The notes under the pieces are model-generated. The model had not been told where the DNA came from and did no database searches. It saw only the letters and a program-made list of their open reading frames with translations. Position numbers and translations under genes: made by a program. Positions 2,488 through 36,812 of a stretch of 64,000 nt of DNA are shown here, piece after piece. The stretch is from Actinomycetota bacterium. Lineage in GTDB: Bacteria; Actinomycetota; Acidimicrobiia; Acidimicrobiales; SZUA-35. Where the stretch lies: the NCBI GenBank assembly GCA_039201605.1, contig JBCCRO010000001.1:162173-226172 (forward strand), read 5' to 3'. Every line of letters begins with the position of its first letter. Within the stretch, counting starts at the first letter, position 1.

Positions 2488-3810
2488 ATGTCATTTACGG
2501 CCGATGTGCAGGCCGCCGCAATTCCTGCTGTCACCGGTGTCCAGGCGGCCAAGATCTGCGCCGCCTGGGCCGGATCGGGCCGATTCGGTGACCATGTGGT
2601 CTACGAGCACGCCGACCGTTGGAGCTTCGGAGGCGGCCGCAAGGCGTCGGTCCGACTCACGACCTCCGAGCTCGTGGTCGAGCGCGACGGGGTCGAGGTG
2701 CGGACGCCGTGGGACGGGGATCCGTCAGCCGCCCTGGGCGCCGCCCTCGACGCCATCGACGAGGACGGATGGCGGCTGTACGGCTGGGTGGGTTTCGACT
2801 TCGCCGCCGCCCAGCACGGCCTCCTCGACCGCGTGCCACCGGGGACGACGCTCGCCCATCTGGTGATCCCCGAGTTCGAGGCCACGGTCGGTGTCGCCGG
2901 CATCGACGTCGGCACCGCACCCCCGGAGACCGCAGCCCTGCTCCGGACGCTGGCCGACGAGGTGGAGCCGCTGGCCACCCCCTGCCCGATCTCGGTTCAC
3001 CTCGATCCCTACGGCTACGAGGACATGGTGGCCACCGCCGTCGGGGAGATCGAGCGGGGCGACTACCGGAAGGTGATTCTCTCCCGGGTGGTGGAGGTGC
3101 CCTTCGCCGTCGACCTCCCTCGGACGTACGCCCTCGGTCGCGCCAGGAACAACCCGGCCCGGTCCTACCTCTTCCAGCTGGACGATCTCAGCGCCGTCGG
3201 GTTCAGCCCCGAGCTGGTGCTGGCCGTCGACGCCGACCGCATCGTGCAGACCGAGCCGCTGGCCGGCACCCGGGCCCTCGGCATCGGGGCCGCCGCCGAC
3301 GCCGAAGCCCGACGAGAGCTGCAATCCGACGTCAAGGAGATCGCCGAACACGCCATGTCGGTGCGGGCCTGTTGGGAAGAGGTCGAGTCCGTCTCCCGGC
3401 CCGGCACCACGGCCGTCAGCGAGTACATGGTGGTGAAGGACCGCGGCAGCGTGCAGCATCTGGCGTCGACGGTCCGCGGCCGATTGGCCGACGACCTCAA
3501 CCCGTGGCACTCGTTCGCCGTCGCCTTCCCGTCGATCACCGCCTCGGGAATCCCCAAGACCGAGGCCCTGGAGGCGATCTACCGGTTGGAGCCCCTGCGG
3601 CGGAACCTCTACTCGGGTGCCGTGGTGACGGCGTCGTCCGCCGGCGATCTGGAGGCGGCACTGGTGCTGCGCACCGTCTTCTCCAGCGGCGGCCGAACCT
3701 GGCTGCGGGCCGGGGCCGGGATCGTCGAACAGTCCCGTCCGAGCCGCGAGTTCGACGAGACGTGCGAGAAGCTCGGGAGCATCGCGCCCTTCCTCGTGCC
3801 CGCCCGATGA
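2488..3810 (+). CDS. mbtI: salicylate synthase / isochorismate synthase family enzyme (MbtI-like chorismate-utilising enzyme)
   Basis: 440-aa ORF with GGAGAG upstream of the ATG. Motifs: SPELVLAVDADRIVQTEPLAGTRALG, KEIAEHAMSV, FPSITASGIPK, RNLYSGAVV, GAGIVEQSRPSREFDET. No isochorismatase (EntB-type), EntA-type dehydrogenase or PchB-like lyase is present in the window. Confidence 0.85.
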   Translation: MSFTADVQAAAIPAVTGVQAAKICAAWAGSGRFGDHVVYEHADRWSFGGGRKASVRLTTSELVVERDGVEVRTPWDGDPSAALGAALDAIDEDGWRLYGWVGFDFAAAQHGLLDRVPPGTTLAHLVIPEFEATVGVAGIDVGTAPPETAALLRTLADEVEPLATPCPISVHLDPYGYEDMVATAVGEIERGDYRKVILSRVVEVPFAVDLPRTYALGRARNNPARSYLFQLDDLSAVGFSPELVLAVDADRIVQTEPLAGTRALGIGAAADAEARRELQSDVKEIAEHAMSVRACWEEVESVSRPGTTAVSEYMVVKDRGSVQHLASTVRGRLADDLNPWHSFAVAFPSITASGIPKTEALEAIYRLEPLRRNLYSGAVVTASSAGDLEAALVLRTVFSSGGRTWLRAGAGIVEQSRPSREFDETCEKLGSIAPFLVPAR

Positions 3811-3850: not shown

Positions 3851-6800
3851 GTGCCGATCCGATCGACGAGCGACCGCACCGGGCCCGATGCCGAGGGTCG
3901 TTCGACCGCTTGCGGGCCGGGCGAACGGGCGGCATCCGTGACCTGGTCGGTCTCCGACGCCGCTGTCGGTGCGGCCGCCGAGCACGGTCCTTCGCTGTCG
4001 GACCAGCAGGAGCGGATCTGGTACCTGTCACGACTGGACCCCGAAGGACCCGGGCTCAACGTCGGTCTGGCCCTGCACCTGGACGGCCCGCTCGATCTCG
4101 ACCGGCTCGATGGCGCCGTGCGGCTCGTCGCCCGCCGCCATCCGCGTCTGACGGCGGTGTTCGGAGTCGACGACCGGGGCGAGCCCCGCTTGCGGAGCAC
4201 CGGCGAGGGCGCAGGCCTGATCGTGTTGGATGAGCTCGACATCGACGCCCCGGCGTGCGGGTCCGTGACCGACGACGCCCTCCAGGTGGTGCTGCGACGC
4301 CGATTCGATCAGAGCTTCGACCTGGCCGGGGAGCCGCCCCTGCGGACAGCCGTCGTGCCGCTAGGCCCGACCGGTCACGTCCTCATCGTGGTCGGCCACC
4401 GCATCGCCATCGATCCCCAGCTCTGGCCCGCTTACCTCGACGAGGTGGCCGTCGCCTACCGGGCCCAGGACCCCGAGCCGGCGGTGGCCGCCGAGACCGG
4501 CCCCGGCTCCTCGTCCGGGACGGTTTCGCCCTCGCCGTCACCGTCGACGAACGGGCAGGCCGCGCCGGCCCCGGCGCCGATCTCACCCCCGCCGTCGGCG
4601 GTCGCGAACGGGCACGCCGCGCCGGCGCCGATCTCACCCCCGCCGTCGGCGGTCGCGAACGGGCACGCCGCGCCCGCGGTGGTGTCGAGGCTTCGACCGG
4701 TCGAGGCCGAGGTACCGCCGCTCGAGTTCCCCGGCGAGTCGCGGAGCCGTCGGCTGCCCGGGTCGGCGGCGGCGATGCTCACTATCGAGCTTGGAGCCGA
4801 TCGACTGGCGACCCTTCGTGACGTGGCGGGCGAGGCCGGGGTCGGTCCGTCGGAGGTGTTCGTCGCCCTGTTCCAGCTCGTCCTGGCCCGGACGTGTTCG
4901 GCCCCCGACCATCTGTTGGAGCTGGCGTCGGCGCCCGGTGCCGATGCCCGCCGCGAGCTGCTGGACGCTCCGGTCGACCGCAGCGTCGTGATCCGGTCCC
5001 TGATCGACGAGGACCGACCGCTGTCCGAGCTGCTCCGGCTGGTGAAGGCCGAGACCTCCCGCGCCCGGGTCACCGGCCCGGGCGGGACGAACGGCGCCCC
5101 GGCCGCCGACGATGAGCTGCTGCCCGATCGCCGGGCCCTCACCCGCGTCCGGTTCGCCGAGCACACCTCCCCGGCCGCCGCCTTCGACCTGCCGGGTGTG
5201 TCGGCCACGGTGCTGGCCGCCGGGACCGGACACGCCTTGGTCCCGCTGACCCTCACCGTCGAGTCCGAGCCGTCGGGCGGCGTCACGCTGCGGCTGGAGT
5301 ACCAGATCGACGTCGTGTCGGACGTGGTGGCCACCGCCGTCGAGTGGCAGCTGCGCGGCGCCGTCGAAGCGCTGTCGCCCGAGCTGCTCGACGAACCGCT
5401 GTCCCGGCTGCCGTCGGTGGCTCCGTCCCGGCGGGACCTCCTCCTCGACTTCGCCCGCGGCGCCCGGTCGCCGGACGGCCCGGCCACCCTGCCCGAGCTG
5501 GTCTCCGCCGCGGCGGCCGAGCGGCCGAACGAGGTGGCGGTGGTGGCCCCGGACGGTGTGCTGCGCTTCGGCCCCCTGCTCGACGATGCCGACCGGCTGG
5601 CCGCCGTACTGGCCGACCAGGGCGTGCGAGCCGGCGACGTGGTGGCCACCCTGCTGGCCCCCTCGGCCGAGCTCGTGGTGACCGCGGTCGCCATCGTCCG
5701 CCTCGGCGCCGTCTACCTCCCCCTCGACCCCGATCTGCCCTCCGGCGAGATCGATCGGCTCCTGGCCGAGACCCGGCCGGTCGGGCTGATCGGCCCGGGC
5801 GCCGCAGGGCGGGCCGATGTGACGGGGCTGTCGACGAAGCGATTGACGGCGACCCCCAACCCGGCCCACCCCGTCGTACCTCGCCACCCCGTCCCCTCGC
5901 CCGAGGATCCCGCCTTCATCGTGGGCTGCGGCGTCGGCGACGAGCTGCGGGGCGTGGTGGTGAGCCACCAGGCGATCTCCGGCTACCTCCGGTGGATCGT
6001 ACGGCTGGGCGACCTGGGTCCGGCCGACTCGGTGCTGCAGGTGGCGCCACCCGGCTTCGACGCCAGCGTGGGTGAGATCTTCGGCTGCCTCATCAGCGGC
6101 GCCCGGCTCGTCATCCCCCGGTCGGGTGGTCTGGCCGACGTCGGCTACCTGGGGTCGCTCCTCGACGAGCAGCACATCACGTCGCTGCACATGGTGCCGT
6201 CGCTCCTCGGGGCCTTCCTCGCCCTCCCCGGAGTCGAGCGGTGGACGACGCTGCGGCGCGTCCCCGTCGGCGGCGAGCCGCTGTCCGGTGATCTGGCCGA
6301 TCGCTTCAACGCCACCTTCGACGCCGAACTGCACAACTTCTACGGCTCGGCCGAGGTCACGCTCGCCGCCTGCCATCAGCAGGTCGGGTTCGGGCAGGGT
6401 CCGGGGGTGGTGCCGATCGGGCGGCCGAAGGCCGACGCCGACGTCCACGTGCTCGACGAACGCCTGCGGCTCGTCGAGGTCGGCGTGGTGGGGGAGATCT
6501 ACGTCGGGGGGTCACAGCTGGCATCGGGCTACCACCGGCGGACGGGCGACACCGCCGCCCGCTTCGTCGCCGACCCCTTCACCGACGGCGGTCGTCTGTT
6601 CCGGACGGGCGACCTCGGTCGATGGTCGGCGGATGGGACCCTCGACTACGTCCGTCGGGCCGATCGGGAGCTGCGCGTCCGCGGTCATCGCCTCGACGCC
6701 GCCGAGGTGGAGGCGGCGGTGGCCAGCGCCGCCGGTTCGACCCAGTGCGTGGTCGACGTCAGCGGGGGCGACGCCGAGGCCCGACTGCTCGCCTATGTGG

Positions 6801-8569
6801 TGCTGCCCGGGGGTGCGACGCTGGCCCCGGAGGTCGAACAGCGGATACGGCAGACGGTGTCGTCCCGACTCCCCGCCCACCTCGTTCCCGAACGCGTCGT
6901 GGCCATAGCGGCGCTGCCCCTCACGACGACGGGGAAGCTCGACCGGTCCCGACTGCGGGCACCGGCCGAGCCGTTCTCCGAGCCGATCCGGGAGGCGGCG
7001 ACCGAGTCCGAGGCCCGGCTGTGCACGATCTTCGGCGATGTCGTCGGCCGTCCGTCGGTGGGGGCAAACGAGTCGTTCTTCGATCTCGGGGGCACGGCGC
7101 TGCTCGCCGCCCGCCTGGCCGGGCGGATCGGCGCTGCGTTCGGCGTCGAACTCTCGATTCCGGTGGTCTTCGAGCGACCGACCCCCGCCGCCCTGGCCGA
7201 GTACCTCGACCTCCACGTGATCGACCTCGGGTCGACGTCCGAGGCGCCTGCGGTCGACAACCGCCCGGGACCGGTCGACCCCCCGATCCCGTCGTCGGCC
7301 GATCCGTCCGGGGCGCCGTCGCCGCTGTCGGCGACCCAGACGCAGCTGCTCGATCGGCTGGCGTCCGGGGGCGTCGCCGACGCCGACCAGGTCGTCTTCG
7401 GGTTCGAGGTCGACGGACCGATCGACGCCGATGTACTGCAGGCGGCGTTGGTCGACGTGGTCGCCCGCCACGAGCTGTTGCACACCGCGTTCCCATCGGT
7501 GGGCGGGGCCGTCGAGCCTCGGAGCGTCGACGAGCCCGACCTGCGGGTGGTCTACGACACGACCGGCGCCGGAGCGGACTCGCTGTTGTGGCGGTCGTGG
7601 CGGGAGGCGCCCCCGGAGCCCGACCTCCGCCCGGTGGCGACCGACCTGATCGTGCGGTCGCCGCAGTGCTCGGTGCTCGTGCTCCGGATCCATGCGTTGT
7701 CGGCCGACCACTGGTCGCTCCCGACCCTCATGGCCGACCTGGCCGTCGCCTACCGGGCCCGGCGCCGCCGGCTGCTCCCCGACTGGCCACCCCGCTACCT
7801 CCAGTACGCCGACGTCGTCGCCTGGCAGCGCGTGAAGGGCGGGCCGCCGACCGATCCCGCCGTCTCCACCGCCTCCGCCTCCGCCGACCCTCGACCGGCC
7901 ACCGACCTGCAGGTGCTCGCCGCCGTCGGCCTCGTCCCGGCGCTCGACCGGCTGGCCGGCATGGCCCGGACCGATCGTCGGGCGGCAGCCGCCGCCGTGG
8001 TCGGTGCCGCCGTCCTCGAGGGCCGCGACACCGACCGGATCGAGGTGTGGGTCCCCGTTCCCGAGGCGGTGCCGGTCGGCATGGACGGCGTGGTCGGACC
8101 CCTCGTCCACGAGCTTCCCGTCACGGTGTCGGGCGCCGCCCTGGCCGACGATCCGGTCGCCGCCGTGGCCGCCGTCGCCGCCGACCTCGACGGTCGGATC
8201 CCCGCCCTCGACCTGCCGGTGCCGACCCCGCACGGCCGCCTCGTGGTCAACGCCGACCTCCCCGAGGTGTTGCCCGTCAGACTCGCCGACGACGCCGGTT
8301 CGCCGGCCACCACGATGCGCGCCCTGGCGCCCCTCCGCCCCGTCCTCTCGGCCGATCTCGCCATCGACCTCGTCTCCGCCGCCGACGGCCCCGCCGTCCG
8401 GGTGACCCAGGGTGCGGGTCACGCCGAGGTGGTTGCCGCCCGGCCTCTGGTCGACCGACTGTCGGCCGTCGCCACCGCCCTGGTGACGCCGCGACGGCCG
8501 GGGTCGGACCCGGCCCAGCCCTCGCCCTCGCCCTCGTCGTCGGCTGCGCCCGACCCGATCCGGAGATGA
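3851..8569 (+). CDS. NRPS-like protein, domain order C-A-T-C, all four domains with degenerate catalytic motifs
   Basis: 1572-aa ORF; the GTG start is uncertain. Recognisable cores are LSDQQERIWYL, FDASVGEIF, NFYGSAEVT, FRTGDLGRW, RADRELRVRGHRLDAAEVE, PLTTTGKLDR, FFDLGG and LSATQTQLLD. The degenerate motifs are:
- HRIAID (4397-4414) in place of HHxxxDG
- VGCGVGDELRG (5912-5953) in place of the TSGSTGxPKG loop
- GGTA (Ala at 7097-7099) in place of GGxS
- HALSAD (7691-7708) in place of HHxxxD. Confidence 0.85.
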   Translation: MPIRSTSDRTGPDAEGRSTACGPGERAASVTWSVSDAAVGAAAEHGPSLSDQQERIWYLSRLDPEGPGLNVGLALHLDGPLDLDRLDGAVRLVARRHPRLTAVFGVDDRGEPRLRSTGEGAGLIVLDELDIDAPACGSVTDDALQVVLRRRFDQSFDLAGEPPLRTAVVPLGPTGHVLIVVGHRIAIDPQLWPAYLDEVAVAYRAQDPEPAVAAETGPGSSSGTVSPSPSPSTNGQAAPAPAPISPPPSAVANGHAAPAPISPPPSAVANGHAAPAVVSRLRPVEAEVPPLEFPGESRSRRLPGSAAAMLTIELGADRLATLRDVAGEAGVGPSEVFVALFQLVLARTCSAPDHLLELASAPGADARRELLDAPVDRSVVIRSLIDEDRPLSELLRLVKAETSRARVTGPGGTNGAPAADDELLPDRRALTRVRFAEHTSPAAAFDLPGVSATVLAAGTGHALVPLTLTVESEPSGGVTLRLEYQIDVVSDVVATAVEWQLRGAVEALSPELLDEPLSRLPSVAPSRRDLLLDFARGARSPDGPATLPELVSAAAAERPNEVAVVAPDGVLRFGPLLDDADRLAAVLADQGVRAGDVVATLLAPSAELVVTAVAIVRLGAVYLPLDPDLPSGEIDRLLAETRPVGLIGPGAAGRADVTGLSTKRLTATPNPAHPVVPRHPVPSPEDPAFIVGCGVGDELRGVVVSHQAISGYLRWIVRLGDLGPADSVLQVAPPGFDASVGEIFGCLISGARLVIPRSGGLADVGYLGSLLDEQHITSLHMVPSLLGAFLALPGVERWTTLRRVPVGGEPLSGDLADRFNATFDAELHNFYGSAEVTLAACHQQVGFGQGPGVVPIGRPKADADVHVLDERLRLVEVGVVGEIYVGGSQLASGYHRRTGDTAARFVADPFTDGGRLFRTGDLGRWSADGTLDYVRRADRELRVRGHRLDAAEVEAAVASAAGSTQCVVDVSGGDAEARLLAYVVLPGGATLAPEVEQRIRQTVSSRLPAHLVPERVVAIAALPLTTTGKLDRSRLRAPAEPFSEPIREAATESEARLCTIFGDVVGRPSVGANESFFDLGGTALLAARLAGRIGAAFGVELSIPVVFERPTPAALAEYLDLHVIDLGSTSEAPAVDNRPGPVDPPIPSSADPSGAPSPLSATQTQLLDRLASGGVADADQVVFGFEVDGPIDADVLQAALVDVVARHELLHTAFPSVGGAVEPRSVDEPDLRVVYDTTGAGADSLLWRSWREAPPEPDLRPVATDLIVRSPQCSVLVLRIHALSADHWSLPTLMADLAVAYRARRRRLLPDWPPRYLQYADVVAWQRVKGGPPTDPAVSTASASADPRPATDLQVLAAVGLVPALDRLAGMARTDRRAAAAAVVGAAVLEGRDTDRIEVWVPVPEAVPVGMDGVVGPLVHELPVTVSGAALADDPVAAVAAVAADLDGRIPALDLPVPTPHGRLVVNADLPEVLPVRLADDAGSPATTMRALAPLRPVLSADLAIDLVSAADGPAVRVTQGAGHAEVVAARPLVDRLSAVATALVTPRRPGSDPAQPSPSPSSSAAPDPIRR
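4571..4672 (+). repeat. perfect 51-bp in-frame tandem duplication (2 copies, plus a diverged partial copy upstream)
   Basis: 4571-4621 and 4622-4672 are identical when compared base by base. Each copy encodes the same 17 residues, which in the protein appear as ISPPPSAVANGHAAPAP repeated twice. The duplication sits in a Pro/Ala/Ser-rich insertion inside the first C-like domain. Confidence 0.95.
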
Positions 8570-9951
8570 CCGTGAGCGATCAGCCCGTACTCGTCTGTAT
8601 CGGCGGCGGCCCCAAGGCCCTCGCCGTGGCCGCCAAGGCCAAGGTCCTCCGTCGGCTCGGCCTTCCCGCACCCCGGGTGGTGATCATCGAGCGCCACTCG
8701 ATCGGCGCCAACTGGACGGCGGCCGGCGGTTGGACCGACGGCACCCACCGGCTCGGGACGAGCCCCGAGAAGGACCTCGGTTTCCCGTATCGCTCGGCCG
8801 AGTTCCGGGGCCACAACCGCCACGTCGATCACGCCATGCTCGCCTTCTCGTGGAACGCCTACCTGGTGGCCGCCGGTGGGCTCGGCGAGTGGGTCGACCG
8901 CGGTCGCCCGGCGCCTCGCCATCGCGAGTGGGCCAGGTACCTCCAGTGGGCGGCCGGCGAGGCCCAGCCGGAGCTGGTGATCGCCGAGGCCCGGACGGCG
9001 ACGATCGCGGGGGAGCGGTGGCGGGTCGAGGCGGTCGGCGACGATGGGCAGCCGCAGTCGATCGAGGCCGACGCCCTGCTGGTGACCGGGCCCGGATCGG
9101 CCACGAGCGAGTGGGAGTCGTCGAGCCCACGGGTGTTCGGACCGGCGCGTTTCTGGCGGGCGGTCACCGAGCGCCGCCTGCCGGTGGTCGAGCGGGCCGC
9201 CGTCATCGGCGCCGGCGAGACCACCGGGGCCATCCTCCACGAGATGTGCGGACACGACGCGCTCGGCGTGTCGATCATCGCCCCGCAGGCCAGCATCTTC
9301 ACCCGGGGCGAGGGGTACTTCGAGAATCGGGCCTTCACCGACAGCGGCCGTTGGCAGGCCCTGTCGCTGGCCCAGCGCCGGGAGCTGATCAGCCGGGCCG
9401 ATCGGGGTGTCATCTCCCAGACCGCCATGGACGAGATCCGTCTCGACAGCCGCTTCGCCCACGTCGAGGGCAAGGTCACCGGGGTGCAGGCCGAGGGCGA
9501 GGAGGTGGTCCTCGGGATCGAGACCGCCACCGGGTTCGTCAGCCGGCGCTATGACCTGGTCATCGACGCCCGCGGCACCCAGGACCTGTGGTTGCTGCGC
9601 TTGCTCGGCGATGTGGCCCGCAGTCGGCTCGAACTCGCCGTCGGTGGTGCGCCGACGCTGGAGCGGGCCCAGATGTCGATCGACCGCACGCTGGCCATCT
9701 CGGGGATGACGCCGCGGCTGTTCGTCCCCGGCCTGGCCGCCCTCCGCCAGGGCCCGGGCTTCCCCAATCTGAGCTGCCTCGGCTCGACCAGCGATCGGAT
9801 CTGCGCCGGGCTGATGCAGGCGACGGTCGACACCCGGGACCCCCACCTCGTTACGGCGGCCTCCGGCCCCACCGCCGGCCGGAGCCGGGCCGTCGAACCG
9901 GCCCCCGGGCGCCGCCCGGCCGCCACCGAACACCAACCAGGAAGCGCATGA
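8566..9951 (+). CDS. mbtG: L-lysine N6-hydroxylase / L-ornithine N5-oxygenase family flavoprotein (MbtG-like)
   Basis: Only the last 461 aa of the 6622-9951 ORF are used. The ATG at 8566 overlaps the upstream stop (ATGA). Motifs: VCIGGGPKALAVAAKA, GANWTAAGGWTDGTHRLGTSPEKDLGFPYRS, VIGAGETTGAIL, QGPGFPNLSCLG. Confidence 0.9.
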   Translation: MTVSDQPVLVCIGGGPKALAVAAKAKVLRRLGLPAPRVVIIERHSIGANWTAAGGWTDGTHRLGTSPEKDLGFPYRSAEFRGHNRHVDHAMLAFSWNAYLVAAGGLGEWVDRGRPAPRHREWARYLQWAAGEAQPELVIAEARTATIAGERWRVEAVGDDGQPQSIEADALLVTGPGSATSEWESSSPRVFGPARFWRAVTERRLPVVERAAVIGAGETTGAILHEMCGHDALGVSIIAPQASIFTRGEGYFENRAFTDSGRWQALSLAQRRELISRADRGVISQTAMDEIRLDSRFAHVEGKVTGVQAEGEEVVLGIETATGFVSRRYDLVIDARGTQDLWLLRLLGDVARSRLELAVGGAPTLERAQMSIDRTLAISGMTPRLFVPGLAALRQGPGFPNLSCLGSTSDRICAGLMQATVDTRDPHLVTAASGPTAGRSRAVEPAPGRRPAATEHQPGSA

Positions 9952-12900
9952 TGACCACCAGAGACGACATCCGGAAGCTGCTGGCCACCGAGCTGGATAT
10001 CGCCGTCGATCAGCTCGAGGACGGGGCCGACCTCTTCACCCAGGGCATCCACTCGCTGCTCCTGATGAAGACGGCCGGTTGGTTGCGTCGCTCCGGTCAC
10101 CGCATCCGCTACGCCGACCTGGTCGAGGTGCCGACGATCGACGCCTGGGTCGCCCTGCTCGACGGCGCAGCCGAGACCGGCACCGCCTCCGACGGCGGCG
10201 CCGACGGTGAGGTCGCCGCCGACGGGTCGGCACCCGAGCCCGACGAGGCCGTGATCGACCTGACCGAGACCGACGATCCCGACTTCGGGCTGGCCACGAT
10301 GCAGCACGCCCTGTGGATCGGTCGCCAGGAGGGCCAGCGCCTGGGCGGCGTGGCCGCCCACCTGTACGTCGAGTTCGACGGGGCGGGGATAGACCCCGAC
10401 CGGCTGCGCCGGGCCCTCGACCGGACGATCGCCCGTCACGACATGCTGCGGGCCGCCTTCGGCGACAACGCCACCCAACGGATCCTGGCCGAGGCACCGG
10501 ATGCGGTGTGGTCGGTGACGGACCTGCGGGACGAGCCGCCCGCCGTCGTCGCCGAGCGCCTGGAGGCGACCCGCCACCAGAAGAGCCACCAGCAGATGGC
10601 GGTCGGCCTGGGCCAGGTGATCGACGTCTCGACCACGCTGTTGCCCGACGGTGCCCACCGCATCCACATCGACGTCGACATGCTGGCCGCCGACGCCATG
10701 AGCTACCGGCGCATCCTCAACGACCTCGCCGTCTACTACAACGAGGACCGCGACGACGCGCTGGCCCCCATCGGCTGCAGCTACCGGCAGTACCTGTCGG
10801 CCCGGGCTCGGCACCGGGACCGGGCGACGGCGGAGATCGAGACCCACCGGCAGTGGTGGGCCGACCGGCTCGCCGATCTGCCCGAGATCCCCGAGCTGCC
10901 GACGATCGGTGAGGCCGAGCGGGCCGACCCCACCGCCAGCGTCCGGCTCCACCACCACCTCGGGGTGACGCAGCGCCGAGGGCTGGAGGAGGCGGCTCGG
11001 ACCCTCGGCCTGACGCCGGCGGCCCTGCTCGCCGCCCTCTTCTCCGAGGTGATCGCCACCTGGTCGGCCTCGCAGCGGTTGCTGCTCAACATCCCGCTGT
11101 TCAACCGGGAGCCGCTGTTCCCCGACGTCGAGCTGCTGGTCGGCGACTTCACCAACTCGGTCCTGGTCGACGTCGACCTGTCGCAGCCGGTGTCGGTGGC
11201 CGAGCGGGCCCGAGGGCTGCAGCGGTCGCTCCACGAGGCGACGGCTCACAGCGCCTACGAGGGCCTCGACGTGCTGCGCGACCTCGGTCGGCTGCGGGGC
11301 AACGCCGTCACCCCCTCGGTGGTGTTCACCTCCGGCCTGAATCTGGGGGAGCTGTTCTCGGCCTCGGTCACCGAGACGCTCGGACGACCGGGCTGGATCC
11401 TGTCCCAGGGCCCTCAGGTCGATCTCGACGCTCAGGTGGTCGAACTCGACGGCGGCATGTTGGTCAACTGGGACCTGCGGCGCGACGCGCTGCCGGCCGG
11501 GATGGGCGAGGCGATGTTCGCCGCATTCACCGAGCTGCTGACCGCAGCCGGGAACGGCGATCTCGACTGGAGCGGCGTGACCTCGGTGGAGCTCGACGAG
11601 GACCAGCGCCGGGGTCGCACGCTGGCCAACCGGGCCCTCGACCGGCGTCCCCCGGTGCGGAACCTGCTCGACCCGTTCTTCGAGTACGTCGGCGCCACCC
11701 CCGACGCCGTGGCCCTGGAGTGGCCGGGTGGCGGCTCGCTGTCGTACCGCCGACTGGCGGACGAGGCCCTGCGTCTCACCGCCGCACTGCGGGCGGCCGG
11801 TGTGGCGCCGGGCGACGACGTGGCCCTGCTCGTGCCCCGAGGCCCGCAGCAGGTGGTGGCCGTGCTCGGGGTCCTGGCCGCCGGAGGCGTGTACGTCCCG
11901 GTCGGCACCGACCTGCCGGTCGCCCGGCAGGCGGCGATCCTCCGACGCTCGGGCGCCTCCGTCCTGGTCACGTCGGGCGGTTCCGGTGGCGAGGAGCTGC
12001 CGAACGACGTCGTCACCGTCGATCTGATGTCGCTCGATGGGGTGGAGCCCGCCGTTCCGTACTCACCCGACCCGGAGTCGCCGGCCTACGTGCTGTTCAC
12101 CTCGGGCTCGACCGGTGAGCCGAAGGGGGTGGAGATCATCCACCAGGCGGCGGCGTCGACCATCGACGCGCTGGCCGGCCACTACGAGCTCAGCGCCGAC
12201 GATCGGGCCATCGGCCTGGCCCCGCTCGGCTTCGACATCTCCGTGCTCGACATCTTCGGAGCCCTGAATTTCGGCGGCTCGCTGGTCTGTCTCGACGAGG
12301 ACACCGCCCGCGATCCCGTGGCCTGGACCCGCCTCATCGCCGCCCACGGGGTGACGGTGGTGGGAGCGGCGCCCGGTCTCATCGCCGCCCTCGACTCGGT
12401 GAGCACCGCCGACGACATCGCCTCGATCCGGCTGATCATGACCGGCGGCGACCGGGTCGATCACGCACTGGGCCGCAGACTGCGGGAGAAGGTGCCGGCG
12501 CTGCGGTTCATCGCCCTCGGCGGCGCCACCGAGGCCGCCATCCACACCACGATCTTCGAGCTCGCCGACACCACTCCGGTCGAGTGGGCCAACCTGCCCT
12601 ACGGCTATCCGATGGACGGTGCCGGGCTACGGGTGGTCAACCAGCGGGGCGAGGACTGCCCCGAGCTGGTGCCGGGCGAGATCTGGATCGGCGGGGCCGG
12701 TGTCGTCGGCTCCGGCTACCGGGGCGACCCGGAGCGCACGGCCGAGAAGTTCCTCGACCTCGACGACGGACGCTGGTACCGGACGGGGGACATCGGGCGG
12801 TACCTGCCCGGCGGGATCCTCGACATCCTCGGACGTCGCGACCACCAGGTGAAGATCCGGGGTCACCGGGTCGAGCTCGGCGAGGTGGAGTCGGCGCTCG

Positions 12901-13475
12901 TCCGCCAGCCCGGCGTCGACGGGGCGTTGGCCACGCTGTTGGGCACCGGCGAGCCGATCCTGGGGGCGGCCGTCGCCGGTCGGGGTCTCGACCCGGAGGC
13001 CTTACGTGAGGGGTTGGCCGCTCTGCTCCCGGCCTACATGGTGCCGACGATCGTGTTGGTCACCGAGACGATGCCGACCACCCGGAACGGCAAACGCGAC
13101 CGGCGGGCGATCGAACAGGCGCTGACCGACGAGCTGGCTCAACGCCAGACGGCACCGGCCTCGCCGGCCAGCGACCTGGAGGCGGCGTTGGCCTTCGTCA
13201 TGGCCGCCATCCTGGAGCGGGACGAGGTGGGGGTCACCGCCGACTTCTTCGAGCTCGGCGGCAACTCGATACACGCCACGCTGTTCGTGGGCCGGGCCCG
13301 ATCCCTGCTGGGGGTGGGCGACCTCGCCGTCGCCGATCTGTTCGAGCTGCGGACACCGCAACGGCTGGCTCCCCGGCTCCTCGAACTCGGCGATGCGCCG
13401 ACGGTCGAGCGCATCGCCACCCTGCTGCTCGACGTCGCCCGGGAGGGCGAGACGTCGGTGCCGGAGCCGGCATGA
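9948..13475 (+). CDS. mbtB: NRPS ArCP-Cy-A-PCP (aryl carrier plus heterocyclisation module, MbtB-like, no C-terminal TE)
   Basis: The ATG at 9948 overlaps the mbtG-like stop (ATGA). The N-terminal carrier motif is FTQGIHSLLLMK. Cy motifs are FGLATMQHALWIGRQ and DVDMLAADAMS (DxxxxDxxS). The A domain is intact (LFTSGSTGEPKG, FDISVLDIFG, LGGATEAAI, YRTGDIGRY, GRRDHQVKIRGHRVELGEVE, NGKRDR). The PCP motif is FFELGGNSIHA. Confidence 0.9.
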   Translation: MMTTRDDIRKLLATELDIAVDQLEDGADLFTQGIHSLLLMKTAGWLRRSGHRIRYADLVEVPTIDAWVALLDGAAETGTASDGGADGEVAADGSAPEPDEAVIDLTETDDPDFGLATMQHALWIGRQEGQRLGGVAAHLYVEFDGAGIDPDRLRRALDRTIARHDMLRAAFGDNATQRILAEAPDAVWSVTDLRDEPPAVVAERLEATRHQKSHQQMAVGLGQVIDVSTTLLPDGAHRIHIDVDMLAADAMSYRRILNDLAVYYNEDRDDALAPIGCSYRQYLSARARHRDRATAEIETHRQWWADRLADLPEIPELPTIGEAERADPTASVRLHHHLGVTQRRGLEEAARTLGLTPAALLAALFSEVIATWSASQRLLLNIPLFNREPLFPDVELLVGDFTNSVLVDVDLSQPVSVAERARGLQRSLHEATAHSAYEGLDVLRDLGRLRGNAVTPSVVFTSGLNLGELFSASVTETLGRPGWILSQGPQVDLDAQVVELDGGMLVNWDLRRDALPAGMGEAMFAAFTELLTAAGNGDLDWSGVTSVELDEDQRRGRTLANRALDRRPPVRNLLDPFFEYVGATPDAVALEWPGGGSLSYRRLADEALRLTAALRAAGVAPGDDVALLVPRGPQQVVAVLGVLAAGGVYVPVGTDLPVARQAAILRRSGASVLVTSGGSGGEELPNDVVTVDLMSLDGVEPAVPYSPDPESPAYVLFTSGSTGEPKGVEIIHQAAASTIDALAGHYELSADDRAIGLAPLGFDISVLDIFGALNFGGSLVCLDEDTARDPVAWTRLIAAHGVTVVGAAPGLIAALDSVSTADDIASIRLIMTGGDRVDHALGRRLREKVPALRFIALGGATEAAIHTTIFELADTTPVEWANLPYGYPMDGAGLRVVNQRGEDCPELVPGEIWIGGAGVVGSGYRGDPERTAEKFLDLDDGRWYRTGDIGRYLPGGILDILGRRDHQVKIRGHRVELGEVESALVRQPGVDGALATLLGTGEPILGAAVAGRGLDPEALREGLAALLPAYMVPTIVLVTETMPTTRNGKRDRRAIEQALTDELAQRQTAPASPASDLEAALAFVMAAILERDEVGVTADFFELGGNSIHATLFVGRARSLLGVGDLAVADLFELRTPQRLAPRLLELGDAPTVERIATLLLDVAREGETSVPEPA

Positions 13476-13592: not shown

Positions 13593-16500
13593 ATGGCTGA
13601 GTCGAGCATCGCCCGACTGTCGCGTCGGCTGGGCAAGCCGGTGCCGGACTCCTCCACCGACGACGAGCAGGTCCCGGTCACGTTGGCCCAGCAGCTCGTC
13701 GTGCGCCAACACCGAGCCGGGCCGCTCGACGGGCGGGCCGTGGCCGTCGCCGCCTGGTCGATCACTCCCGCCCCGGAACCCGACGCCCTCGCTTCCGCCG
13801 TCGGCCGACTGATGACCGAGTGCGCCGTGCTGCGCACGATCCACCCCGCCGATCGCCCGGTTGTCGAGGGCCGGCTCCTCGATCCCGACGCCGTCGCGGT
13901 CGAGGACGTCCCGCCCGTGCTCGACCACATCGACGCAGTGCTGGCGTACGGGGCTCGCCCGATCGACATCGCCTCGGACGCCCCGTTCCGGGTCGCGGCC
14001 CGCACCGAGGGCGAGCACACGCTCGTGGTGCTGTCGCTCCACGCCGTGGCCGGGGACGAGCTGCTGTTGCGGGCGCTGATCAATCGGCTGGCCGTGCTCC
14101 TCGACGACCCGGGCGCGCCGCATGCCCGCTTCGACGAGGCACACCGGGCTCTGGCCGAGGCGGAGCTGGAGGCGGCCGGCGCCGCCGGCTCCGACCCCGA
14201 CCTGGCGTACTGGCTCGCCGAGCTCGACGGCCTGCCGCCCACCTCGCTCCGGCCGCTGGCCTGGCGGCCCGCCGCCGGAGCCGGTGCCGAAGCGCCGGGA
14301 GGAGCGGCAGGTCCGGGCCGGACAGGGGCCGTGGCCTCCCTCGCGCCCGACCTCGGCGGCGAGGCGGTGGACGTTGCCGCCGTCGTGTCGGCGATCGCCG
14401 CCGCCCTCTACGACGAGTGGGCCCTCGACGATCTGGTGATCGCCGTCGGCGACACCGCCACGTCCGGCGACGAGCCGGCACCCCACGTCAACCGTCTGCT
14501 GTGCCGGATCCGACCCGACGCCGGCTCCACCGCCCGCCGGCTCCGGGTCGAGGTGGAGCGGACGTTGGAGCGGGGACGGGTCCACCGGTCGACCCGCTTC
14601 GAGCAGATCATGTTGCACCCCGCCACCGGGCGGCCGCCGTCGGTCCCGCCCCAGGTGGCCACACTGGCCGCAGTCGGTCCGGATCGGATCGCCGTCGGGC
14701 GCCACCGGCTGGCCTCGGTCGGGCACCTCGACGCACTCCTCCCCGGCGTCGACCTCGGCCTCACCGTCATCGACGGCGCCGACGGCCCGGCTCTGCGGGT
14801 GACGATGGCCGATGAGGTGGCGGCACTGCACGACGTGTCGGCCTGGGCCGGGCGGATCGCAGCCCGAGCCGCGGCACTGGTGACCGCCCCGGAGAACCCG
14901 CTCGGCCAGCACCCCCTGGTGCCCGAGCCCGAGCCCGAGCCCGGTGCCGATGGCGACGAGGGCGAGGCGAGCGCCGCCGCCATCAGCCTTGACGCCGCCG
15001 ACCCCGACCCCGGTACCGCCGACCCTGGCGCAGCCGAGGGCGATGGGGAGTCGATCGTGATGTGGGGCGTGTCGACGACGCCGACCGAGGTTGCGAGCAC
15101 CACCGCAGCCCTGTTCTCGTCCTTGGAGGCCGCCGGTTGGGGGGAGGGCTCCGTCATCGCCTGTCCGGCGGCGGCCCCGTACGCACCGGCGGCGATGGGC
15201 GCCGCTCATCGGCTGGGGGCCGTGATCGCCCTGGTGCCTGACGTCGCCGAGGGAGCGCCCGATCCGCTGCCGGCCGCGCTGGGTGCCGACGTCGCCCTCA
15301 CCGCAGGCCCCTCGCTCGACCCCGCAGCCGATCTCGACGCCACCTTCGACTCCCGCCTTCGGGCCACCGGGGCCGCGATGCTCGACATCGGCGCCGCCGT
15401 CGGGGCCCCGCAGCCCACGCCCTCGTCGACGACGTCGTCCACGGTGTCGGCGGCGATCCCGCCGATCTCCGCCGTAGCGCCCGATCGGACGGCGCTGCTG
15501 GTGCCTGCCGCCGACGGTCGGACCTGGGTCGGCCATTCGTACCGGTCGGTGGCCCGGTATGTCGCCACCGAGCAGGGGCACGATCCGGTGCTGATCGTCA
15601 GCGCCGACCTGGCCGCCGGGCAGACCGCCGTCCGGGTGATCGCCGCCCTGGCGGCGCGACGGCCGCTGCGACTGGTGACCCCCACTGCGGTGACCGAGCG
15701 GGAGACGGCCCTGGTCGTCGCCGCCCACACCGGCGAGCTGGTGGTGGGGTGGCTGGCCCTCGTCGTCGTCGCCGCCTCGGCCGACGCCGCCGACCGATCG
15801 ATATCGGCTCGGCGGATCACCGTCGACGCCGCCACCATCCTCGATCGCCACGTGGTGCCGCCGCCGGCCGTACCGCCGTCGTCGGAGGTGGCGGTGAGCT
15901 TCGCCCCCGACTCGTGCGGCCCGATCGCCGTCGCCCGGCGATCGTCGATCGACGACCTCGGGGACGGCCCCGGTCTCGGCATCGGGTCGGCCGTGGCCGA
16001 CGCTGAGATCCGTGTCGCGCACCCCGACGGCCGCCCGTTGCCCGACGGCATGATCGGCCGGGTCGACGTCGGGCGACGTGACGAGGTCGACCTGCGGCCG
16101 ACCGGGTTCACCGGGTTCCGCGCCGCCGACGGCACCGTCCGTCTGGCGCCCCCGACGCCTCGCCGTCGGCTCCTCCCGAACGGCGAGCAGCTCGATCTCG
16201 ATCGCCTGGAGGAGCGCCTCACCCGCCACCCCGACGTTCTCGTCGCCACCGTGCAGGCCGATGACGACGAGGCGAAGCCGACCCTCGACGTCCACGTGGT
16301 CCCCAACCCGGGCGCCGACGGGGCGATCCTCGAGATCGTGGCCACCGACGAGCTCGGTCTCGCCCTCGGCGACCCGTCGGTGGCCCGAACGGTGACGGTC
16401 GTGGCCGAGGTGCCGCTGACCGCCGTCGGCACGCTCGACGTCGACGCCCTGCCCGACCCCGCCTCCGCCCGGCTCTCGGGCTTCGGTGGCCCGCCCCGCA

Positions 16501-16907
16501 CGCCGACCGAGGAGGCTGTCGTCGAGGCCGTTCGGGCCGCCCTGCTCACCGCCGCCGCCGGTCCCGACATCGCAGGCCTCGACCGACGGACCTCACTCGA
16601 CGAGCTGGCGGCCACCTCGACCGAGATCGGTCGGGAGGACAGCTTCTTCGGGCTCGGGGGCGACAGCCTCGCCGCCCTCCAGGTGATCACCATCCTGCAG
16701 GACGCCGGTCACCCGGCCGAGGTGGAGACGCTCTTCCTCCACCCGATGCTGTCGGCCTTCGCCCGGGAGATCGACGACGCCCGGGCCGCCGGGGTCGGCG
16801 TCGACACCGGGCCGACCGAAGCGGCTCCGCCGATGTCGGCATCGGGTCTCGACGCCGACGGACTGGCCGATCTGCTGGCCAGCCTCAACGCCGAGGCCGA
16901 CGAGTGA
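13593..16907 (+). CDS. NRPS-like protein C-A-PCP with degenerate C and A domains and an intact carrier domain
   Basis: 1104-aa ORF with GGAGG 8 nt upstream of the ATG. The C-like motif is HAVAGD (14040-14057), lacking the second His. The A-like region has VPAADGRTWVG (15501-15533) in place of the TSGSTGxPKG loop and PLTAVGTLDV with no A10 Lys. The PCP motif FFGLGGDSLAAL retains the Ser. Confidence 0.8.
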   Translation: MAESSIARLSRRLGKPVPDSSTDDEQVPVTLAQQLVVRQHRAGPLDGRAVAVAAWSITPAPEPDALASAVGRLMTECAVLRTIHPADRPVVEGRLLDPDAVAVEDVPPVLDHIDAVLAYGARPIDIASDAPFRVAARTEGEHTLVVLSLHAVAGDELLLRALINRLAVLLDDPGAPHARFDEAHRALAEAELEAAGAAGSDPDLAYWLAELDGLPPTSLRPLAWRPAAGAGAEAPGGAAGPGRTGAVASLAPDLGGEAVDVAAVVSAIAAALYDEWALDDLVIAVGDTATSGDEPAPHVNRLLCRIRPDAGSTARRLRVEVERTLERGRVHRSTRFEQIMLHPATGRPPSVPPQVATLAAVGPDRIAVGRHRLASVGHLDALLPGVDLGLTVIDGADGPALRVTMADEVAALHDVSAWAGRIAARAAALVTAPENPLGQHPLVPEPEPEPGADGDEGEASAAAISLDAADPDPGTADPGAAEGDGESIVMWGVSTTPTEVASTTAALFSSLEAAGWGEGSVIACPAAAPYAPAAMGAAHRLGAVIALVPDVAEGAPDPLPAALGADVALTAGPSLDPAADLDATFDSRLRATGAAMLDIGAAVGAPQPTPSSTTSSTVSAAIPPISAVAPDRTALLVPAADGRTWVGHSYRSVARYVATEQGHDPVLIVSADLAAGQTAVRVIAALAARRPLRLVTPTAVTERETALVVAAHTGELVVGWLALVVVAASADAADRSISARRITVDAATILDRHVVPPPAVPPSSEVAVSFAPDSCGPIAVARRSSIDDLGDGPGLGIGSAVADAEIRVAHPDGRPLPDGMIGRVDVGRRDEVDLRPTGFTGFRAADGTVRLAPPTPRRRLLPNGEQLDLDRLEERLTRHPDVLVATVQADDDEAKPTLDVHVVPNPGADGAILEIVATDELGLALGDPSVARTVTVVAEVPLTAVGTLDVDALPDPASARLSGFGGPPRTPTEEAVVEAVRAALLTAAAGPDIAGLDRRTSLDELAATSTEIGREDSFFGLGGDSLAALQVITILQDAGHPAEVETLFLHPMLSAFAREIDDARAAGVGVDTGPTEAAPPMSASGLDADGLADLLASLNAEADE

Positions 16908-20783: not shown

Positions 20784-21488
20784 TCAGCGCCAATAGCCCT
20801 TGGCCACCATCCGCGACTTGGGCACGCCGTTGTTGTCGCGCACGCTGCGGCCCATGGCCCGGGTCGAGAGGGCGTCGCAGGCGATCCACACGTAGGCCTC
20901 GGCGTCGCACCGCACCTCGGCCGCCGCCTCCCGCATGAGCTGGCCGTCGTTGGTCCGCTCGAGCCAGGTGACCGGGGTCGAGGCGTTGGCCCGGACGGGC
21001 AGCTCCTGGTCGGTCTCGAACTGCCACTCGAGCCAGATCCGGGTGGGTGTGTCGCCGATGGCGTCGAGCAGGGTGTTGATCGCCGGCAGCGACGCCGTGT
21101 CGCCGAAGAGCAGGAACTCGGGCGGCGTCGGGTCGGGCATCTTGAACTTCGACCCCAGCATCGTGGCCTCGATCTCGTCGCCCGGCTCGGCCCCGGTCGC
21201 CCACTGCGAGGCCGGGCCACCGTGGAGGGCGAACTCGATGTCGAAGGCGTCGTCGTCTGGCCGCTGATTGAGCAGCGTGTAGGCCCGCTGCTGCAGCTTG
21301 CCGTCGCCGCGGGGAAACCACAGGCGCACCCACTGGGTGGGATGGACGGGGTGGTCGGCGAGCAGGCCGCCGGCCTCGAAGCCGAGCCGGAGGTAGCGGT
21401 CGGTCACCTCCTGTTTCGACCGCAGCCGCAGCCGGTAATCCCGACCGCCGAAGGTCTTGGTCAGCAGGCCGTTCACACCTCGGGACAT
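20784..21488 (-). CDS. siderophore-interacting protein (FAD-binding ferric-siderophore reductase, ViuB/YqjH family)
   Basis: The start is taken at the internal ATG 21488 (MSRGVNGLL), which has GGAGAG upstream. Motifs: VTDRYLRLGF, QQRAYTLL (RxYT FAD motif), LLFGDTASLPAINTLL, and a KGYWR C-terminus. Confidence 0.85.
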   Translation of the reverse strand: MSRGVNGLLTKTFGGRDYRLRLRSKQEVTDRYLRLGFEAGGLLADHPVHPTQWVRLWFPRGDGKLQQRAYTLLNQRPDDDAFDIEFALHGGPASQWATGAEPGDEIEATMLGSKFKMPDPTPPEFLLFGDTASLPAINTLLDAIGDTPTRIWLEWQFETDQELPVRANASTPVTWLERTNDGQLMREAAAEVRCDAEAYVWIACDALSTRAMGRSVRDNNGVPKSRMVAKGYWR

Positions 21489-21630
21489 CGTCTCTCCACC
21501 TGTTGCGACGAACGATCGATGGTAGTGGCCGGGTCGGCGAACACTACATGGTAGGTGACACTCACATGCAGCAGAAGGTACTCGTAGCACCCCGGTCCCG
21601 GGCCGGGCTCCACCCGAGCGAGGGGGGCCG

Positions 21631-31739: not shown

Positions 31740-31964
31740 ATGAATCCGTTCGATGATGAGGACGCTCGATTTCTCGTCCTGCGGAACGTCCAGGGCCAGT
31801 ACTCGTTGTGGCCGGTGTTCGCCGACGTCCCGGGCGGCTGGGACGTCGTTTTGGCCGAGACCGACCGGGCGACGTGCCTGGCCTACGTGGACGAGCACTG
31901 GACCGATCTGCGCCCAGCCCAACTGGCCTCGGCCGAGACCGCACCCGATCACGCCGCACCGTGA
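31740..31964 (+). CDS. mbtH: MbtH-like protein
   Basis: 74 aa: MNPFDDEDARFLVLRNVQGQYSLWPVFADVPGGW...YVDEHWTDLRP. An AAGGAAGG RBS lies upstream. Confidence 0.95.
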   Translation: MNPFDDEDARFLVLRNVQGQYSLWPVFADVPGGWDVVLAETDRATCLAYVDEHWTDLRPAQLASAETAPDHAAP

Positions 31965-32040
31965 CGGGGGCGAACACCGGGCCTGCGGCTGCCGGACCCG
32001 GGCCGTGCGAGGGCGTCGGCGACGGCCCCGGTGGCGGCTG

Positions 32041-36725: not shown

Positions 36726-36812
36726 GGGGGTCCGTTCTCTGCTCAGGAGGCCGGCGCCAGCGGAGCCGAACACTTCACGGCCCGACAGGTGTCAAGGAGG
36801 TACCAAGAAGGT

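Follow-up and report, generated by a model that had tools for sequence, protein, structure and literature searches.

A catalytically degenerate MbtE-derived C-A-T-C protein, probably retained, in a mycobactin-like siderophore cluster of an Actinomycetota bacterium

The gene described here lies in a window of 64,000 nucleotides (the whole stretch of DNA that was analysed: positions 162,173 to 226,172 of contig JBCCRO010000001.1, assembly GCA_039201605.1), taken from a metagenome-assembled genome (MAG) of an Actinomycetota bacterium. This open reading frame (ORF) of the + strand, at 3851-8569, encodes a protein with the condensation-adenylation-carrier-condensation (C-A-T-C) order of a nonribosomal peptide synthetase (NRPS), in which each of the four domains (hereafter C1, A, T and C2) has lost its catalytic residues. 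Judged by its motifs, the protein cannot, in canonical terms, perform condensation, adenylation or substrate carrying. An earlier note on this DNA had concluded that the gene is not a working assembly-line module and that it is either a decaying relic or a retained non-catalytic protein. The first statement stood, as the four signatures are absent in register, and the two options are now separated by comparisons among related genes that favour retention. Our preferred reading, held with moderate confidence, is that this MbtE-derived subunit is a catalytically dead, selectively retained pseudo-enzyme, for which we infer a structural or adaptor role.

Loss of the catalytic signatures

The register of the motifs was checked by HMMER alignments to solved LgrA structures and by alignments with nine MbtE-like homologues and with the syntenic orthologues described below. 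The gene, its domains and the motifs discussed in the text are listed here.

3851-8569, + strand: whole ORF, C-A-T-C, 1572 aa from GTG 3851, catalytic residues lost in every domain
3989-5485, + strand: C1, first condensation-like domain, residues ~47-545 (Pfam; 27-39% identity to MbtE-like proteins by BLAST)
4397-4414, + strand: C1 His motif, HRIAID for HHxxxD, aligned with HHIAWDD of homologues
4487-4696, + strand: Pro/Ala/Ser insert of ~70 aa (residues ~213-282; 16 Ala, 16 Pro, 12 Ser), lineage-specific
4571-4621 and 4622-4672, + strand: exact 51-bp (17-codon) tandem duplication inside the insert
5486-6970, + strand: A, adenylation-like domain, residues 546-1040, the best-conserved large domain, MbtE clade
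5921-5953, + strand: A3 phosphate loop (P-loop), VGCGVGDELRG for TSGSTGxPKG, with a one-residue deletion, aligned with YTSGSTGLPKG
6056-6067, + strand: A4, FDAS retained
6335-6355, + strand: A5, NFYGSAE for NFYGPTE (Pro to Ser, Thr to Ala; Glu retained)
6599-6613, + strand: A7, FRTGD retained
6653-6712, + strand: A8, RRADRELRVRGHRLDAAEVE for GRxDxQVKIRGxRIELGEVE (Gly to Arg, Gln to Glu, Lys to Arg)
6917-6946, + strand: A10, PLTTTGKLDR retained, including the Lys
6983-7225, + strand: T, carrier-like domain, residues 1045-1125 (PP-binding, 49.9 bits), attachment Ser absent
7097-7099, + strand: Ala codon at the phosphopantetheinyl Ser site, GGTAL for GGHSL in the alignments
7226-8485, + strand: C2, second condensation-like domain, residues 1126-1545, N-lobe recognisable, C-lobe with deletions
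7691-7708, + strand: C2 His motif, HALSAD for HHxxxD; HALSADHWS aligned with HHIA(A/G)DHWS
8486-8566, + strand: Pro/Ser-rich C-terminal tail with no orthologue counterpart
8566-9951, + strand: MbtG-like lysine N6-hydroxylase gene, its ATG overlapping the stop of the C-A-T-C gene; 66% identity to Rhodococcus and Dactylosporangium proteins

Alignment with structures and homologues, a check that the earlier note had itself proposed, demonstrated that the motifs had been correctly registered and that the catalytic residues are gone. The C1 motif reads HRIAIDP: the second, catalytic His is Arg, as had been claimed, and the next Gly is Pro. The reported loss of the P-loop also stood, but the loop starts at 5921 and not at 5912, where three extra residues had been included. 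The A8 core RRADRELRVRG aligns with GRADEQVKIRG. The Ala at the carrier Ser position and the HALSAD of C2, again without the second His, were found in register as described, and the DHWS context of the latter is typical of MbtE-type second C domains. No canonical condensation is expected because the second His is absent from both C domains, no canonical ATP-dependent adenylation because of the substituted P-loop and the changes in A5 and A8, and no substrate carrying because the phosphopantetheine Ser is missing. Compared with a canonical NRPS elongation module, the protein lacks HHxxxDG, A3, A5/A8 and the carrier Ser, and keeps the Asp of A4, the Asp of A7 and the Lys of A10. A compensated local frameshift behind the lost P-loop and motifs was rejected, since a scan of the gene found no alternative reading frame that restores any of them.

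The surroundings of the motifs are better preserved. The A domain keeps 75% of the positions that are at least 90% conserved in 140 A domains, the lowest value for an active domain being 82.5%. The T domain is up to 55% identical to active T domains and, among nine highly conserved positions, loses only two (Leu to Val and Ser to Ala); the surroundings of its attachment site read SFFDLGGxxLLAARL both here and in the other Ser-less protein, that of Dactylosporangium. Among 117 homologues from the protein search, loss of all four motifs was limited to this protein and its two near-identical copies in other MAGs; the other homologues, with several hundred domain instances, displayed isolated single-motif deviations only.

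The same motifs bear on the question of whether some non-canonical catalysis is left, either because an A domain with a GCGVGD loop activates a lysine derivative in trans or because the C-like domains use other carriers. In favour are the retained A4 Asp, A7 Asp, A10 Lys and aligned specificity residues, a replacement loop that remains rich in Gly, the tolerance of some C domains to the loss of their second His, and the presence of intact carriers in the cluster, such as the T domain of the protein encoded at 13593-16907 or the MbtL-like acyl carrier protein (ACP). However, A3 has none of its conserved Thr, Ser and Lys left and has gained two acidic residues, the Thr of A5 and the Lys of A8 are changed, the second His is gone from both C domains, and C2 is without conserved C-lobe segments. 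Furthermore, no described A domain with such a loop was present among the 117 homologues. Residual catalysis of this kind is, in our judgement, distinctly unlikely.

Reading frame and gene boundaries

The order C-A-T-C, recognised before from conserved cores, was recovered by Pfam profiles, which matched Condensation at residues 48-204 (and in a second stretch), AMP-binding at 553-895, AMP-binding_C at 952-1029 and PP-binding at 1056-1119. On TIGR01733 the A domain scored 286 bits, below the cut-off of 317. NCBI places the start at GTG 3938, which gives a protein of 1543 aa (MEM9889354.1) annotated "AMP-binding protein". The frame stays open for 1572 codons, with no frameshift or premature stop in 4.7 kb. 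G + C content at codon positions 1/2/3 is 0.79/0.54/0.90 and the neighbouring genes show the same pattern, in agreement with the G/C-biased third positions noted earlier; the third-position value stays between 0.80 and 0.96 in each 300-nt segment, and codon periodicity persists where homology has eroded. The overlap with the MbtG-like gene, which had also been pointed out, is an ATGA at 8566-8569.

Family and syntenic orthologues

In domain-wise BLAST, both C1 and A came closest to proteins of the MbtE type from mycobacteria and Nocardia, C1 to their first C domains, and the A domain was 42-46% identical to MbtE-like A domains. On this comparison, the protein belongs to the MbtE family. The MbtE-type architecture was derived from the alignment of MbtE-like homologues made here, in which the proteins have the order C-A-T-C-(A remnant)-T and a PMSASGL tail. 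The protein of this genome ends after the second C, and the terminal T and PMSASGL tail are on the separate protein encoded at 13593-16907. Seven of the aligned proteins (P0022, P0023, P0024, P0027, P0036, P0076 and P0084; 1690-1830 aa), from mycobacteria and Nocardia, carry after the second C no more than ~100 aa left from a second A domain (A6-A8 region) and then an intact second carrier; P0004 and P0005 (2180 aa) are long enough for a full second module. From these remnants, degenerate second modules seem to be a family trait.

Orthologues were not within easy reach of direct searches. Among the best 120 matches of the whole-protein homologue search, only the protein itself exceeded 40% identity; the orthologues (38-43%) fell outside these 120 because multi-module NRPSs swamped the ranking. 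Scans of genome and metagenome contigs with the protein returned only generic NRPSs of 21-38% identity, and a search of 1.84 billion representatives with the T-C2 part was dominated by giant NRPSs through their summed scores. The orthologues were reached through MbtG homologues (59-66% identical) and come from Rhodococcus sp. 14-2483-1-2, Rhodococcoides kyotonense and Dactylosporangium sp. NPDC005572. The orthologous C-A-T-C gene encodes 1434-1438 aa and lies between the salicylate genes and mbtG, and its stop/start overlap with mbtG (ATGA or TGATG) is present in five loci, the fifth of which is a partial metagenomic contig. Identity of the C-A-T-C gene is 38-45% in every lineage pair and that of its cluster neighbours 48-70%; no orthologue above 45% identity was found in the searches. 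The states of the five motifs in the three lineages are as follows.

Rhodococcus orthologue: C1 HHIAWDD, A3 TSASTGPPKG, A8 GRVDQQVKIRG, carrier GGHSL, C2 HH; all intact
Dactylosporangium orthologue (L031:5688-10004): C1 HRIAWDE, A3 TSASTGQPKG, A8 GRAEEQVRLHG, carrier GGHPL, C2 HH
This genome: C1, A3, A8, carrier and C2 all lost

The Dactylosporangium protein thus has HR in C1, Pro for the carrier Ser and an altered A8, and retains the P-loop and the HH of C2. The C2 motifs of the orthologues read HHVAADRWS and HHIACDSWS. Deletions in the C-lobe of C2 are common to all syntenic orthologues, which makes them a trait of the family and not a decay specific to this genome. In a neighbour-joining tree with MbtE-like outgroups, the four orthologues formed a clade with 100% support next to the Nocardia MbtE-like proteins, and within it the protein of this genome and that of Dactylosporangium were sisters in 100% of 200 bootstraps. 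Given this grouping, HR in C1 and the absence of the carrier Ser probably arose before the two lineages split. At the positions of the A domain that we take, following GrsA numbering, to determine specificity, the residues are identical to those of Dactylosporangium, and nine of ten are identical to those of Rhodococcus.

Relic or retained

Three-taxon branch lengths of the C-A-T-C gene were 0.63 for this genome, 0.37 for Dactylosporangium and 0.50 for Rhodococcus, and those of mbtB 0.375, 0.227 and 0.315, respectively. The ratio between the two genes is therefore 1.68 in this genome, 1.63 in Dactylosporangium and 1.59 in Rhodococcus: the total loss of motifs has occurred with no extra acceleration in this genome. 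A second measure was obtained from the sites at which Dactylosporangium and Rhodococcus have the same residue, by counting how many had changed in this lineage. Outside A3 and A8, 62 of 259 sites of the A domain were changed (24%), compared with 173/685 (25%) in the active MbtB (P = 0.74) and 130/612 (21%) in the active C-A-T NRPS of the cluster. The P-loop, in contrast, had 8 of its 9 sites changed (89%; Fisher P = 1e-4 compared with 62/259). An obliterated P-loop beside an A domain conserved like an active enzyme rules out uniform neutral decay, and such uneven constraint is what a folded protein would lead one to expect. The C domains changed at higher rates, 69/166 (42%) in C1 and 74/156 (47%) in C2; their Rhodococcus counterparts with intact motifs are also elevated, at 36-37%.

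Variation at shorter distances points in the same direction. Two other MAGs carry the gene with 5 and 10 substitutions and with identical motifs and length (4719 nt). The differences among the three MAGs comprise 4 non-synonymous and 7 synonymous sites (pN/pS 0.23), and so few non-synonymous changes are expected with P = 0.018 if changes fall at random over Nei-Gojobori (NG86) sites; the intact neighbouring genes gave a non-synonymous to synonymous count of 8:14. Between the two Rhodococcus genomes, dN/dS was 0.22 for the orthologue of the gene, 0.16 for mbtB, 0.13 for the C-A-T NRPS and 0.07 for mbtG. The comparison of dN/dS among orthologues suggested in the earlier note gave, for this Rhodococcus pair, a value well below 1, against 0.13-0.16 for the active NRPSs. 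The C-A-T-C family is somewhat relaxed everywhere, and its dead member is at the same level. As regards the marks of a pseudogene, the gene has neither frameshifts nor premature stops and does not appear to evolve neutrally, the latter observation having limited power. Together, the constraint data, the open frame and the codon periodicity favour continued selection on the protein for a function outside catalysis.

A decaying relic, that is, an MbtE-type gene inactivated so recently that its frame is open only for lack of time, would account for the loss of all four signatures, for the C-like domains being the fastest-evolving parts, for the 70-aa low-complexity insert with its perfect 51-bp duplication, for the loss of a docking-like N-terminal helix and for the lack of any orthologue found above 45% identity. 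It is difficult to reconcile with about 10 nucleotide changes in the 30 nt of the P-loop while the remaining A domain changed no more than active MbtB, with a rate that does not exceed that of orthologues with intact motifs and with the pN/pS of 0.23. Moreover, the Dactylosporangium sister has HR and no carrier Ser as well, so that inactivation is probably old, and yet 4.7 kb remain without stops or frameshifts and with codon periodicity. We consider a relic improbable.

The same data speak to a second possibility, namely that the protein is useless and the frame acts as a spacer, kept open since stops would be polar on the downstream mbtG, mbtB and exporter genes. The genes of the operon are tightly packed with overlapping starts and stops, and five loci share the overlap with mbtG, which fits this explanation. 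But selection against stops alone would let the amino acids drift, whereas A and T are conserved like active enzymes and the variation among the MAGs and between the Rhodococcus species is mostly synonymous. A spacer would also be expected to shrink by in-frame deletion, and the length remains at 1434-1572 codons in all lineages. A mere spacer is very unlikely. An artefact of assembly or sequencing has to be considered for any gene whose source is a MAG, but three independently assembled MAGs with 5-10 substitutions carry the same length and motifs, and two of the losses recur in a cultured strain of Dactylosporangium. The presence of the same gene in independent MAGs effectively refutes this explanation, whose probability we regard as negligible.

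Several observations weigh against retention as a folded adaptor. C1 carries the ~70-aa Pro/Ala/Ser insert, which had been described, with its perfect duplication, in the earlier note and is present as stated. It is placed after the helix that follows the C1 His motif, was found in no MbtE-like homologue or syntenic orthologue of the alignments and is predicted to be disordered (predicted local distance difference test score, pLDDT, 29-39 in the AlphaFold model); it is still expanding, as the duplication, being perfect, must be very recent. The AlphaFold models of C1 and C2, built from 10-sequence alignments in which the syntenic orthologues were not included, had mean pLDDT of 58 (N-lobe 70-89, C-lobe low) and 50.5 (N-lobe alone 64-86), respectively; with means of 50-58, folding of the C-lobes is unsupported by the models. 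The N-terminal helix of the MbtE-type proteins and of the 2030-aa NRPS of the cluster is absent, which argues against ordinary in-line docking. The C domains have longer branches here (C1 0.79, C2 0.90) than in the orthologues (0.42-0.65 and 0.57-0.59), branch-length comparisons rest on protein distances that saturate, and the polymorphism sample comprises 11 sites only. The sister grouping with Dactylosporangium could be due to long-branch attraction and the shared change of His to Arg could be convergent. Finally, the overlap with mbtG also occurs in orthologues with intact motifs and is thus no pointer to a non-catalytic role.

Proposed role

If the protein is a retained pseudo-enzyme, as we prefer, it would be kept as a translated and folded protein under purifying selection and would have a structural or adaptor function in the complex that assembles the siderophore, by means of the conserved body and pocket of its A domain and the conserved surface of its carrier domain. 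It would be made together with the lysine N-hydroxylase MbtG through the conserved stop/start overlap, and the assembly of the chain would be done by the MbtB-like protein, the 2030-aa NRPS, the C-A-T NRPS and the intact carrier of the 13593-16907 protein. By analogy with X-domains, the hydroxylase or the acyltransferase might dock on the protein; the stop/start overlap with mbtG is compatible with this, but orthologues with intact motifs share it.

A broader and rather doubtful proposal is that the C-A-T-C proteins overlapping mbtG constitute an undescribed, MbtE-derived organisational family, which would keep the lysine N-hydroxylase, perhaps with the acyltransferase, at the assembly line, or pass on modified lysine through an A domain that only binds. 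Catalysis would then have been lost stepwise, from the intact protein of Rhodococcus through the half-dead one of Dactylosporangium to the fully dead one of this genome.

The siderophore gene cluster

The window contains a complete mycobactin-like siderophore cluster without a polyketide synthase (PKS). Apart from the C-A-T-C and mbtG genes, its members are the following.

509-2164, - strand: salicyl-AMP ligase
2488-3810, + strand: salicylate synthase (mbtI)
9948-13475, + strand: MbtB-like protein with aryl carrier (ArCP), cyclisation (Cy), A and T domains; DxxxxD, TSGSTGEPKG and GGNS intact
13593-16907, + strand: degenerate NRPS protein of 1104 aa with an intact carrier domain
16904-20670, + strand: two IrtAB-like ATP-binding cassette (ABC) exporter genes
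20784-21668, - strand: siderophore-interacting reductase
21631-27723, + strand: NRPS of 2030 aa
27751-31560: ACP (MbtL-like), FadD33-like ligase, MbtN-like dehydrogenase and MbtK-like acyltransferase
31740-31955, + strand: MbtH-like gene (86.8 bits)
31753-32808, + strand: phosphopantetheinyl transferase (PPTase) ORF, its annotated start overlain, in another frame, by the MbtH-like gene
32805-33545: thioesterase
33594-36773, - strand: C-A-T NRPS with canonical motifs

The true start of the PPTase is probably downstream of the MbtH-like gene, near 31950. From mbtI through the C-A-T-C gene, mbtG, mbtB and the 13593-16907 gene to the two ABC genes the cluster is tightly packed, with overlaps at 8566-8569, ~9948-9953 and 16904-16907. 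No cytochrome P450 is present among the annotated genes of the 64-kb window. As the remaining cluster genes are intact, the motif losses of the C-A-T-C gene do not reflect death of the whole pathway. The C-A-T-C protein is 26-35% identical to the other NRPSs of the cluster, and its origin as a recent paralogue of one of them was rejected on this account.

Other members of the cluster also depart from the canonical NRPS. The 13593-16907 protein, encoded ~5 kb downstream, is even more degenerate than the C-A-T-C protein: it begins with a C-like domain (HAVAGDE), followed by an A-like stretch of ~500 aa in which the sole recognisable A motif is PLTAVGTLD (Lys to Thr), and ends with an intact carrier (GGDS) and a PMSASGLD tail that resembles the C-terminus of MbtE-type proteins. 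A homologue search with this protein matched only itself. Its orthologues in Rhodococcus and Dactylosporangium are "C-T" proteins of 583-646 aa, and none of these C domains has the second His (HRIAADE, HRVAGDL, HQLAADD); the A remnant is long in the window, short in Rhodococcus and nearly absent in Dactylosporangium. The 2030-aa NRPS has intact motifs (C HHIAWDA, A TSGTSGWPKG, T GGDS, terminal C HHVISDG) and an internal C-like domain (residues ~1100-1570, nt ~24930-26340) that reads AGGLVADPPS at the HHxxxDG site, which makes it another non-catalytic C-type domain of the cluster. In the ArCP-Cy linker of the MbtB-like gene, there is a 30-bp in-frame indel polymorphism at 10160-10189, the segment being present in the window and absent from the MAG GCA_039196935.1.

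The divergent promoter region between the salicyl-AMP ligase and the salicylate synthase (2165-2487) is unusually AT-rich and contains a palindrome, TTTAGGACCACCTAAA, at 2214-2229, whose half-sites resemble DtxR/IdeR boxes and whose spacing is different; a canonical IdeR iron box had no match in the window at up to 3 mismatches. The cluster extends upstream past the start of the window (L002:150-5822), with genes for an aspartate decarboxylase, a pyridoxal phosphate (PLP) enzyme, a thioesterase, a 96-aa protein, a stand-alone AMP-binding enzyme of 505 aa and a periplasmic siderophore-binding protein. One speculation is that the 505-aa AMP-binding enzyme acts in trans to load the intact carrier of the 13593-16907 protein.

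Comparison with known systems

The closest described relatives are the MbtE-type NRPSs (M. tuberculosis Rv2380c family). The protein shares with them the C-A-T-C core and the DHWS-type second C, and it too lies in a siderophore cluster of the salicylate/oxazoline/hydroxylysine type, with counterparts of mbtA, mbtB, mbtG to mbtI and mbtK to mbtN. It differs in lacking a terminal carrier, the PMSASGL tail, the N-terminal helix and any catalytic signature, and no PKS is found in its window. A precedent for a non-essential copy of MbtE type is MAB_2122 of M. abscessus, a second mbtE analogue in an mbt-like locus, whose deletion led to no growth defect in low iron; in contrast with the protein studied here, no loss of catalytic motifs was reported for it (PMC9927159).

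Inactive single domains are better known. The X-domain of glycopeptide NRPSs has a condensation fold without a functional HHxxxDG and recruits trans-acting oxygenases (PMC8949500). Both C-like domains of the protein likewise lack a functional HHxxxDG. However, the X-domain belongs to a final module that is otherwise active, lies between the last carrier and the thioesterase (TE) domain and binds cytochrome P450s, whereas the protein described here is a separate one with four dead domains and no TE. A Foldseek search with the low-confidence C2 model gave X-domains (6m7l, 4tx3; E ~1e-13) as nominal top hits, ordinary C domains being equal to them, with TM scores of 0.34-0.41. The X-domain analogy is a resemblance only, as position, partners and context differ. 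Inactive A domains complemented in trans occur in the albicidin, ramoplanin and enduracidin systems (PMC8949500). These, too, retain degenerate A core motifs inside an NRPS, the missing chemistry coming from another enzyme, but their carrier and C domains stay active and the module keeps its place in the assembly line, unlike those of the present protein, in which the carrier Ser and both catalytic His are gone.

For the docking of an N-hydroxylase on NRPSs of a siderophore pathway, pyoverdine synthesis offers a precedent: inside cells, PvdA, an ornithine hydroxylase, is physically bound to the four NRPSs of that pathway ("siderosomes"; bioRxiv 10.1101/438713). Those NRPSs are catalytically active. 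The Rhodococcus and Dactylosporangium orthologues resemble it most, in position, overlap, length class, reduced C-lobe of C2 and elevated rate; as far as our searches went, no description of these C-A-T-C proteins was found. We know of no described complete four-domain NRPS subunit that lacks every signature and is yet constrained like its intact relatives. Thus, inactive single NRPS domains are already known, and what appears to be new is a whole dead four-domain subunit under constraint.

Significance

The existence of such a protein has consequences for genome mining. Rule-based tools would either count it as a module, and so predict a product with a surplus residue, or discard it as a pseudogene, and both readings mislead the prediction of structure for mycobactin-like siderophores of this type. 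The series from intact through partial to complete loss of the signatures is a natural experiment on what NRPS domains contribute beyond catalysis, and it bears on whether siderophore hydroxylases dock on NRPS scaffolds. As two of the three organisms in the series are cultured, the question can be addressed experimentally, and the Dactylosporangium orthologue provides a half-dead intermediate in a cultured strain. If the proposal of an organisational family were true, these genes would represent a natural series of an enzyme module becoming a scaffold.

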